Source: Dehalococcoidia bacterium (GTDB lineage: Bacteria; Chloroflexota; Dehalococcoidia; Lucifugimonadales; UBA3495). From it: a DNA stretch of 64,000 nucleotides. How positions within the stretch are numbered: the first letter of the stretch is position 1; each line of letters starts with the position of its first letter. Made by a program: the position numbers and the translations under genes. Below are positions 29,498 to 31,279 of the stretch, piece after piece. The notes under the pieces were generated by a model. It was not told where the DNA came from, ran no database searches, and worked only from the letters and a program-made list of their open reading frames with translations. Location: NCBI GenBank assembly GCA_965207025.1, contig OZ242258.1, positions 858,841-922,840 on the forward strand. Reading direction: 5' to 3'.

Positions 29498-30571
29498 ATG
29501 CCGGCGCTCGATTCCATAACTATCAGAGGGTTCAAGAGCATCAAGGCCGTCGAAAGCCTGAAGCTCAATGCCATCAACGTGCTCATCGGAGCCAACGGGT
29601 CTGGGAAGTCAAACTTTTTGGAGGCGTTCACGTTTGTGCGAGAAGTAGTTGAGGGTAGGCTGCGTCAATTTGTTGTGAAGTCGGGTGGAGCGGAGCGTGT
29701 TCTCCACTTCGGCACTCGCAACACGGAATACATTGGCATTTTCGTCAGCTTGGATGATGGGAACTCGTACAGTTTGGCGATAGAGCCGGCGTTTTATGAT
29801 GATCAGTTAGTGTTAGTTGACGAGTCCATTAGCACGATGCCGTACCTACCCGGTCCAGTTTCAGATGCCGTGCCAGCCATTGTGCGAGATTTCTTGCATG
29901 TGGATCCGTGGGTTTCGTACCACTTTCACGACACAAGCCAAGCCTCGCCGATGAAAAAAACCGCTAATCTGAACGACAATAGATCCCTGCGTCCTGATGC
30001 TTCCAACTTGGCCGCGTTCTTGTACTTACTCCGGACAAAGCATCCCGCCTCCTACAATCGGATTAGACGCACGGTGCAACTGGCAGCGCCATTCTTTGAC
30101 GATTTCGCGCTGGAGCCACAAAAGTTGAACCCGGAGACGATTCTCCTCGAATGGCGGCACAAGGGGTCTGACGCTTACTTCAACGCCGCATCCCTATCCG
30201 ACGGCACGCTGCGCTTTATTGCCTTGGCGACCCTGCTGCTGCAACCCGAGAGTCTGCGTCCTTCGGTAATCCTGTTGGATGAGCCTGAACTGGGCCTGCA
30301 CCCCTACGCCATCACGCTGTTGGCTGCCATGGCCAAGAGCGCCTCAGTCAACAGTCAGGTGATCATGGCCACCCAGTCCCCGACCCTGCTGAAGCACTTT
30401 AACCCTGAGGACGTTATCGTAGCCAACCGGGTTGAGGGAGAAGCCAGGTTTGAGAGGCTGGACGCTGAGAGATTGGAGGTATGGTTGGAGGATTACAGCC
30501 TTGGGCAACTCTGGGAAATGAACGAACTTGGCGGTCGGCCTGCTCCAGAATACAGGCCTGTTCAGCAATGA
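29498..30571 (+). CDS. ABC/AAA_21-type ATPase (SMC-like, defence-associated architecture)
   Basis: Walker A GANGSGKSN, signature-like LSDGTLRF, Walker B ILLDEPELGLHP, and H-loop MATQSP. G+C is lower than in the flanks. Confidence 0.85.
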   Translation: MPALDSITIRGFKSIKAVESLKLNAINVLIGANGSGKSNFLEAFTFVREVVEGRLRQFVVKSGGAERVLHFGTRNTEYIGIFVSLDDGNSYSLAIEPAFYDDQLVLVDESISTMPYLPGPVSDAVPAIVRDFLHVDPWVSYHFHDTSQASPMKKTANLNDNRSLRPDASNLAAFLYLLRTKHPASYNRIRRTVQLAAPFFDDFALEPQKLNPETILLEWRHKGSDAYFNAASLSDGTLRFIALATLLLQPESLRPSVILLDEPELGLHPYAITLLAAMAKSASVNSQVIMATQSPTLLKHFNPEDVIVANRVEGEARFERLDAERLEVWLEDYSLGQLWEMNELGGRPAPEYRPVQQ

Positions 30572-30587
30572 AAGAAGACCGGCCGCC

Positions 30588-31279
30588 ATGACTCGATTGC
30601 TGGTCCACGTCGAAGGTCAGACTGAGGAAGCCTTCGTTAATGAGGTACTTGCGCCGCATCTATACGACATCGGCTATGCCGAGGTTAGCGCTCGGCTAAT
30701 GGGAGACGAGCGTGAAAGAGACCGACGCGGTGGAATCCGTCCGTGGTCGGAAGCGAGCCGAGGCATTATCAATCGCCTCCGACAAGACCCGATTCAAGTC
30801 GCAACTACCATGGTTGACTACTACGGCCTACCGTCTGTAGGTTCGAGAGGTTGGCCGGGCCGAACAGAGGCGGGCAGGTTACCCTTCGCAGAAAGGCTGC
30901 CTGTGTTGAGAACTCCATCAGTTCTAACGTGGCGGAATTGATGGATGATGGATTTGATCAGCGCAGATTTGTGCCTTACGTAATGATGCACGAGTTCGAG
31001 GCGATGCTTTTCAGCGATTGCGAGGCGTTTGCGCAAGCTATCGATCATGCTGAACTCGCCGGACCTTTTCGGCAAGTGCGGGAGAGTTTCAATACGCCGG
31101 AAGAGATTAACGATTCTCCAGAAACCGCACCGTCCAAGAGGATTCTGGCTTTAGTGCCCAACTATCAGAAACCGCTGCTTGGCGTCGCCGCTGCTTCAGA
31201 GATTGGGCTTGCTGTTATCCGTCGGGAATGCCCACATTTCGGGCATTGGTTGGCAGGTCTGGAAAGTTTAGTTGCGTAA
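30588..31279 (+). pseudogene. DUF4276-family gene with a -1 frameshift at an AAA run
   Basis: Frame a (30588 onward) reads MTRLLVHVEGQTEEAFVNEVLAPHL...DYYGLP...WPGRTEAGRLPFAE. Frame b continues KAACVENS...RFVPYVMMHEFEAMLFSD...PEEINDSPETAPSKRIL...CPHFGHWL. The two join at 30892-30894, and one extra A would restore a single ORF of about 230 aa. Confidence 0.7.

Follow-up and report, generated by a model that had tools for sequence, protein, structure and literature searches.

What is the small two-gene module that lies between an SDR-family gene and hisZ in a sponge-associated Dehalococcoidia bacterium, and does it still work? The window, meaning the whole stretch analysed, comprises 64,000 nucleotides of contig OZ242258.1 (positions 858,841 to 922,840 of the forward strand; GenBank assembly GCA_965207025.1), and the module at 29498-31279 encodes an ABC-type ATPase and a DUF4276 protein. 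A preliminary description proposed a defence-type pair of an ATPase and a nuclease-like partner, and a PADLOC run matches the two proteins to HEC-01A and HEC-01B: the pair is a member of the HEC-01 family, a candidate anti-phage system already held in PADLOC. We regard it as highly probable that this HEC-01 copy sits in an SDR-hisZ hotspot, that its nuclease gene was recently frameshifted, and that the pair is most likely dead with its ATPase intact. The same description knew of no demonstrated function for DUF4276; the pair is not unknown, as HEC-01 has been catalogued (10.1101/2024.01.29.577857) and DUF4276 has been recognised as a Toprim domain (PMC12065111). New here are the DUF4276 frameshift, the hotspot in this genus, the uneven decay of the two genes, and a multi-copy element in the 566 bp that follow them.

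HEC-01 (Hma-embedded candidate 01) was described as an ABC ATPase with a TOPRIM partner that has the metal site of Burkholderia OLD (10.1101/2024.01.29.577857). The first gene of the module (29498..30571, + strand) is an intact open reading frame (ORF) for a 357-aa ABC-type ATPase of the AAA_21/SMC_N group, as first noted from its motifs, and the Pfam profiles PF13304 AAA_21 (8e-33), SMC_N (3.7e-15) and AAA_15 (5.5e-15) match it. The Walker A (GANGSGKS), the signature-like LSDGTLRF, the Walker B (ILLDEPELGLHP) and the TQSP motif are unchanged in five orthologues of the genus. Searched with the PADLOC-DB profiles, the ATPase matches HEC-01A (PDLC04175) at 3.4e-130 and 432 bits; seven of its eight top models are HEC-01A, AriA is the eighth (2.1e-32), mad3 (2.1e-28) and AbiLi (4.5e-23) follow far behind HEC-01A, and the Old and ATPase-Toprim models match weakly. 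A sequence search of the PDB with the ATPase gives weak SMC-head matches only, and no close relative with a solved structure. Its start lies 14 nt past the stop of the upstream SDR gene (SDR2); since a promoter scan of the region finds no promoter-like site ahead of it, the ATPase gene is probably transcribed by read-through from SDR2.

The DUF4276 gene starts at 30588 on the same strand, 16 nt beyond the ATPase stop at 30571, and the expected DUF4276 profile (PF14103) matches from there in two frames. The N-terminal part (30588..30941, + strand) covers PF14103 positions 1-68 (2.9e-10, 41.1 bits) and the C-terminal part, in the -1 frame (30896..31279, + strand), covers positions 73-192, the latter scored on the ORF at 30851-31279 (1.7e-34, 120.2 bits; gathering cut-off 30.2 for both). 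HEC-01B (PDLC04188) is likewise matched in two frames, positions 12-101 at 1.2e-22 and positions 107-226 at 6.6e-45. The C-terminal part encodes the invariant H-E-x-E and C-P-H-F motifs. In Pfam and PADLOC the partner matches PF14103 and HEC-01B only, with no match to AriB or DUF4435 (PF14491), and the genome holds no second DUF4276 copy.

The fold was modelled on P0002, an intact 230-aa homologue of the frameshifted gene, by AlphaFold2 with a 66-sequence alignment (predicted local distance difference test 92.1, predicted template modelling score 0.89). In this model the partner adopts a three-layer alpha/beta Toprim fold resembling that of OLD nucleases, which agrees with the nuclease-like fold that had been anticipated. 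The sole significant Foldseek match in the PDB is 6NJV, the C-terminal Toprim region of Xanthomonas OLD (E 5.7e-4, probability 1.0, template modelling (TM) score 0.42-0.46, 15% identity); the near-identical entry 6NJX comes next at E 1.7e-3, just above the 0.001 cut-off. A PDB sequence search with the DUF4276 profile returns nothing, and thus no close relative with a solved structure. Across the 66 homologues, E9 and E13 (in VEGQTEE), D77, H135, E136 and E138 show little or no variation, and the window encodes all of them; by conservation they would provide the glutamate behind strand 1 and the acidic cluster behind strand 3 or 4 that are expected of a Toprim domain. With PARIS, OLD and Gabija as analogues, the ATPase (HEC-01A) would serve as sensor and scaffold and would control a metal-dependent Toprim nuclease (HEC-01B), which would cut nucleic acid upon detection of an infection.

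Aligned with eight orthologues at the nucleotide level, the DUF4276 gene breaks at a short A run (30892..30894, + strand), where a one-base deficit shifts the frame by -1. The N-terminal part keeps its frame until about codon 103, after which the reading is shifted and ends at a stop codon at 30939-30941. In two sponge metagenomes of 2019 from a separate study, Logan contigs agree with the window over 30642-31400 and 30696-31016 with zero differences and zero gaps, and a Joint Genome Institute (JGI) metagenome contig (L086) carries the same frameshift in a gapless alignment of 99.93% identity over 5704 bases. A 94.5% identical contig from a 2023 sponge metagenome (L085) has one extra A at the run, and its product is the intact P0002. 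When the window is compared with L085, the ratio of nonsynonymous to synonymous substitution rates (dN/dS) in DUF4276 is 0.08 before the shift and 0.51 behind it; of the four differences that separate the window from L086, three fall in the 386 bases behind the shift, and P0003, the gene call from L086, has the invariant residues F137 and S143 altered. The frameshift is real and recent. Projected on the P0002 model, the split falls within the fold and parts E9 and D77 from the H135-E136-x-E138 cluster and the helical C-terminal half. Of the two HEC-01 genes only the ATPase gene is therefore whole, HEC-01B being split; the nuclease is presumably inactive in this genome and, because its gene is truly frameshifted, the two-component module is most likely non-functional as a system.

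Two readings would leave a working pair in the organism. The break might be an assembly or sequencing error in an intact HEC-01 locus, as its position in a homopolymer would allow; however, the A run is just three long, the three independent data sets (two from Logan, one from JGI over 5.7 kb) are gapless and identical there, and the raised dN/dS and the extra substitutions at invariant residues behind the shift are at odds with an intact gene, so we consider such an error very improbable. Alternatively, the split gene might still function, by programmed -1 ribosomal frameshifting, by transcriptional slippage or by reassembly of two polypeptides, and the retention of the N-terminal ORF with its low dN/dS speaks for this. 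Against it, there is no slippery heptamer and the run has only three A; the other full-length orthologues compared and the 94.5% identical strain read the gene in a single frame, and therefore the shift is not a trait of the family; the downstream part is gaining changes at invariant positions; and the split lies inside the fold, between strand 3 and the H-E-x-E cluster. A functional split gene thus seems to us scarcely credible, and a recently inactivated nuclease remains the preferred reading.

How the pair came to this site is best seen in the genus. The genome is a single contig of 4.43 Mb, its relatives are metagenome-assembled genomes (MAGs) labelled Chloroflexota or Dehalococcoidia, and the reads holding the locus come from sponge metagenomes. 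The G+C content is 0.50-0.58 across 29400-31800 and 0.62-0.67 (about 0.64) in the flanks, so the module is indeed richer in A/T than its surroundings. To its left lies SDR2 (28701..29483, + strand; PF13561, 1.8e-39), which the preliminary description had called degenerate; it is 82-91% identical across the genus, always directly left of the variable spacer, and is a maintained gene, not a pseudogene. To the right lies a hisZ-like gene (31846..33264, + strand), a HisRS paralogue found in 41 of 41 genomes of the genus and followed by hisG. In about 30 genomes with the same flanks, glyQS-birA-SDR1-SDR2 and hisZ-hisG are kept and the SDR2-hisZ spacer varies, in keeping with the suggestion of a variable spot rather than a fixed housekeeping operon.

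The spacer is empty (70-260 bp) in eight genomes, and in six (G000, the genome of the window, and G052, G054, G014, G008 and G004) it holds the HEC-01 pair at an identical junction 14-17 nt past the SDR2 stop. In G017 the pair adjoins SDR2 and hisZ has been relocated, while in G009 only ATPase residues 1-110 are left, beside an ISAs1-type transposase. Alternative cargos, seen at loci L045-L064 of genus relatives, include a NucS-like protein of ~400 aa (PADLOC PDC-S11, 7.5e-71) in six genomes, paired PaREP1-like genes (PF05942, ~130 aa each) in six, and unannotated proteins of 294 and 192 aa with no Pfam or PADLOC match; by location alone, the unannotated proteins are candidate new conflict genes. 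When mapped on a tree of 29 genomes built from hisZ+hisG, the cargo shows a scattered distribution, and HEC-01 presence requires at least eight changes. Sister genomes differ (G052 with HEC-01 vs G019 empty; G008 with HEC-01 vs G056 with PDC-S11), and the closest relatives by hisZ (G021, G041 and G051) are without the pair. The SDR2-hisZ spacer is a cargo-swapping hotspot in the genus. The common junction behind the SDR2 stop suggests a single ancestral HEC-01 insertion with subsequent spread or loss by recombination; the idea of horizontal acquisition therefore stands at the level of hotspot alleles, and not as a recent foreign insertion in this strain.

Beyond the genus, the ATPase has relatives at 53-59% identity in MAGs from several phyla; many of these MAGs derive from sponges, and the lineages include Verrucomicrobiales, Blastocatellia, Caldilineaceae, Binatia, Alphaproteobacteria, Deltaproteobacteria and Spirochaetia, a scatter that supports a defence-type reading. 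Decay was surveyed in 30 genomes chosen by ATPase similarity, a sample biased toward intact ATPases, and only lesions visible in the DNA were counted. The ATPase is a single open frame in all 30, and DUF4276 adjoins it in 29. DUF4276 is clearly broken in five of these 29 (three nonsense mutations, at W53, W89 and C215, one frameshift and one internal deletion), and one further case is uncertain. Short gene calls proved an unreliable proxy for broken genes: P0065 (L101) is one open frame on translation, and P0008 looks like an incomplete call of the gene in G052, whose translation is intact. With genes of 690 and 1074 nt, the chance that all of five to seven lesions fall in the shorter one is about 0.39^5 (~0.01) or lower. 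Because the sample was chosen through the ATPase, the skew of lesions toward the nuclease is suggestive only; it fits, and suggests, a costly effector that is tolerated only while useful.

Within the genus, G004 has an in-frame stop in DUF4276, G014 has TGA at Cys215 and another genome has an insertion sequence (IS) in the gene, with intact ATPases in all three. In G014 (L009/L103) the TGA of codon 215 replaces the invariant Cys of C-P-H-F and the frame continues with PHFGQWL; selenocysteine recoding was considered, but nothing speaks for it and the codon is taken as a nonsense mutation. Two genomes, of the different records L102 and L119, both have a stop at the near-invariant Trp53. In the Binatia MAG contig L112 (5148-7025), from the one surveyed genome whose partner is not DUF4276, the gene after a 58%-identical ATPase encodes a 625-aa protein with NERD and UvrD-like helicase domains in place of DUF4276; to judge from this gene arrangement, the effector appears to have been swapped on the same ATPase scaffold. 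In another group of large genomes (L087-L091) the pair has gyrB with two unknown genes on one side and a lipoate-protein ligase gene on the other, lies beside a Fic gene, and is again a small islet among housekeeping genes.

Several points weigh against the reading of this locus as a recently inactivated defence system. The defence role of HEC-01 depends on two heterologous tests of other family members, one positive and one negative: HEC-01 gave no protection against an E. coli phage panel in E. coli MG1655 (10.1101/2024.01.29.577857), while one HEC-01 cluster from cold-seep metagenomes reportedly gave E. coli B protection from one or more of the phages T4, T5 and T7 (10.1101/2024.09.26.614923). 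The structural likeness of the partner model to OLD is remote, with TM scores below 0.5. The ATPase is under purifying selection relative to the sister strain of contig L085 (dN/dS = 0.14), but because the frameshift is recent, this value says little on whether the ATPase is needed at present. The shared junction means that the history of the pair in the genus may be largely one of vertical inheritance and loss, and not of repeated acquisition. Finally, a search for runs over the locus yielded four (X1-X4) from the window's own sample, none of them confirmed as RNA.

The lesion pattern is also what would be expected if the pair were mainly a selfish toxin-restraint cassette of the addiction or abortive type and not a defence specific to phage, in which a costly nuclease is repeatedly knocked out and the ATPase persists: the ATPase is intact throughout the survey and DUF4276 is not, the three genus genomes just described are broken in DUF4276 only, and the MG1655 panel showed no protection. 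Defence and addiction are not exclusive, however, the cold-seep cluster did protect against phage, and sampling through the ATPase favours intact ATPases, and we judge this explanation unlikely. It is rather improbable, too, that the remaining ATPase plays a separate role, such as one with a different effector in trans, which would make the locus remodelled and not dead. Its intact ORF and motifs and its low dN/dS agree with such a role, as do the NERD-helicase partner of the Binatia ATPase, which indicates that partners are exchangeable, and the other AAA_21 paralogues present in this genome; no other DUF4276 copy is available, though, and the frameshift is too recent for ATPase conservation to inform on the matter. 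A HEC-01 pair that lately lost its nuclease is still the reading we prefer.

The 566 bp behind the module (31280-31845) had been described as lacking a convincing ORF, which holds, but they are not featureless: they contain a dispersed element of ~350 nt (31368..31724, + strand), with a promoter-like site at 31376-31405 followed by a core of ~280 nt closed by a long stem. This genome has at least four further copies, and numerous ones are found in G003, G051, G010 and G023, frequently where contigs end. All copies open with a promoter-like TTGAC-N17/18-TATCAT/CATAAT, read as ATGACC-18-TATCAT in the window and the sole promoter-like match in the region. As read from the alignment, the core includes a variable hairpin whose arms differ among copies and stay complementary, and some copies have an optional insertion of ~55 nt. 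RNAalifold gives a consensus of -65 kcal/mol for 12 copies with no scored covariation, the copies being too alike, and an Rfam scan of 28400-32000 at E<=1 finds no match. The three copies whose downstream flank was read all lie upstream of a gene and point toward it. The element could be a mobile promoter-bearing element (miniature inverted-repeat transposable element, MITE) or a structured RNA gene. The tail was also considered as a remnant of other cargo, and this was rejected: compared with the spacers of 17 relatives by blastn and tblastx, it matched nothing beyond the last ~40 bp before hisZ.

Two further features mark the surroundings of the spacer. At its right border, a -10-like box (31829..31845, + strand; TAGAAT/TACAAT after TGG/TGC/TGA/TGT) lies 9 nt ahead of the hisZ ATG in nearly the same form in 26 of 26 genomes aligned. 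Its position suggests a leaderless or near-leaderless hisZ mRNA with a private promoter, which may explain how cargo swaps upstream spare hisZ. Outside the module, between the two SDR genes, a repeat search finds a cluster of palindromes like repetitive extragenic palindromic (REP) elements (28561..28700); the patch had been pointed out before and is part of a genuine repeat family that has some 230 short near-identical matches in the 4.43-Mb genome. In several relatives, related GTCATTCC...GGAATCC units border the PDC-S11 cargo on the side of SDR2.

The locus is thus a decayed member of a known candidate family; what deserves to be retained is the hotspot together with the selective nuclease loss. 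It offers a natural case of a defence candidate just after inactivation, for which the intact allele of the 94.5% identical sister provides a matched pair. The hotspot (SDR, cargo, hisZ) is small and well bounded, lies in an uncultured sponge-symbiont lineage and can be mined for candidates. With the nuclease broken in about one-fifth of copies and the ATPase in none, the nuclease is suggested to be a costly effector, and its cost may help explain the inconsistent heterologous phage tests of HEC-01. More tentatively, and with less than even confidence, the spacer might be a recombination-driven defence hotspot whose cargos (the PaREP1-like pair and the 294-aa and 192-aa proteins) are new systems, and the selective Toprim knock-outs across phyla might reflect a self-targeting cost of the nuclease. 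If so, uncharacterised cargos could be nominated as defence or conflict systems by location alone, and the fitness cost of the nuclease would be the first functional handle on HEC-01, which has given mixed results in phage assays so far.

Among known systems, HEC-01 itself is the closest: both proteins match its profile hidden Markov models (HMMs) strongly, and the two genes follow each other in the same order with only a short gap between them. Unlike the described systems, the window pair lies outside any Hma system, alone in the SDR-hisZ hotspot, and its HEC-01B is frameshifted. DUF4276 has also been listed as a partner of AAA_15/21 defence ATPases (PMC11464382), and the work that placed it in the Toprim superfamily names the MADS protein Mad4 as a homologue (PMC12065111). 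The mad3 model matches the ATPase as well, but no methyltransferase or other mad genes are near, the neighbours being glyQS, birA, two SDR genes, hisZ and hisG. The preliminary description likened the module to Septu, PARIS, AbiL and Gabija; the last three hold as analogues, none is its family, and Septu falls away, as its partner PtuB is an HNH nuclease whereas the window partner is a DUF4276/Toprim protein. AbiL (AbiLi AAA_21 with the RloB-type Toprim AbiLii) shares the two-gene logic, and its AbiLi model matches the ATPase, but the window partner is DUF4276 and not RloB. In OLD nucleases and Gabija GajA, the C-terminal Toprim region of OLD remotely resembles the DUF4276 model, but ATPase and Toprim are fused there and are separate ORFs in the window and in 29 relatives. 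PARIS (the ABC ATPase AriA with the DUF4435 Toprim nuclease AriB) is likewise a two-gene pair of an ABC ATPase and a small Toprim nuclease, with AriA among the secondary matches; it differs in that the window partner is DUF4276, not DUF4435, and that the top HMMs are HEC-01 and not Ari. PARIS, OLD, Gabija and AbiL are thus analogues of the window pair and not its family, and the mechanism probably parallels that of PARIS, in which a Toprim nuclease is released or activated by an ATPase scaffold.

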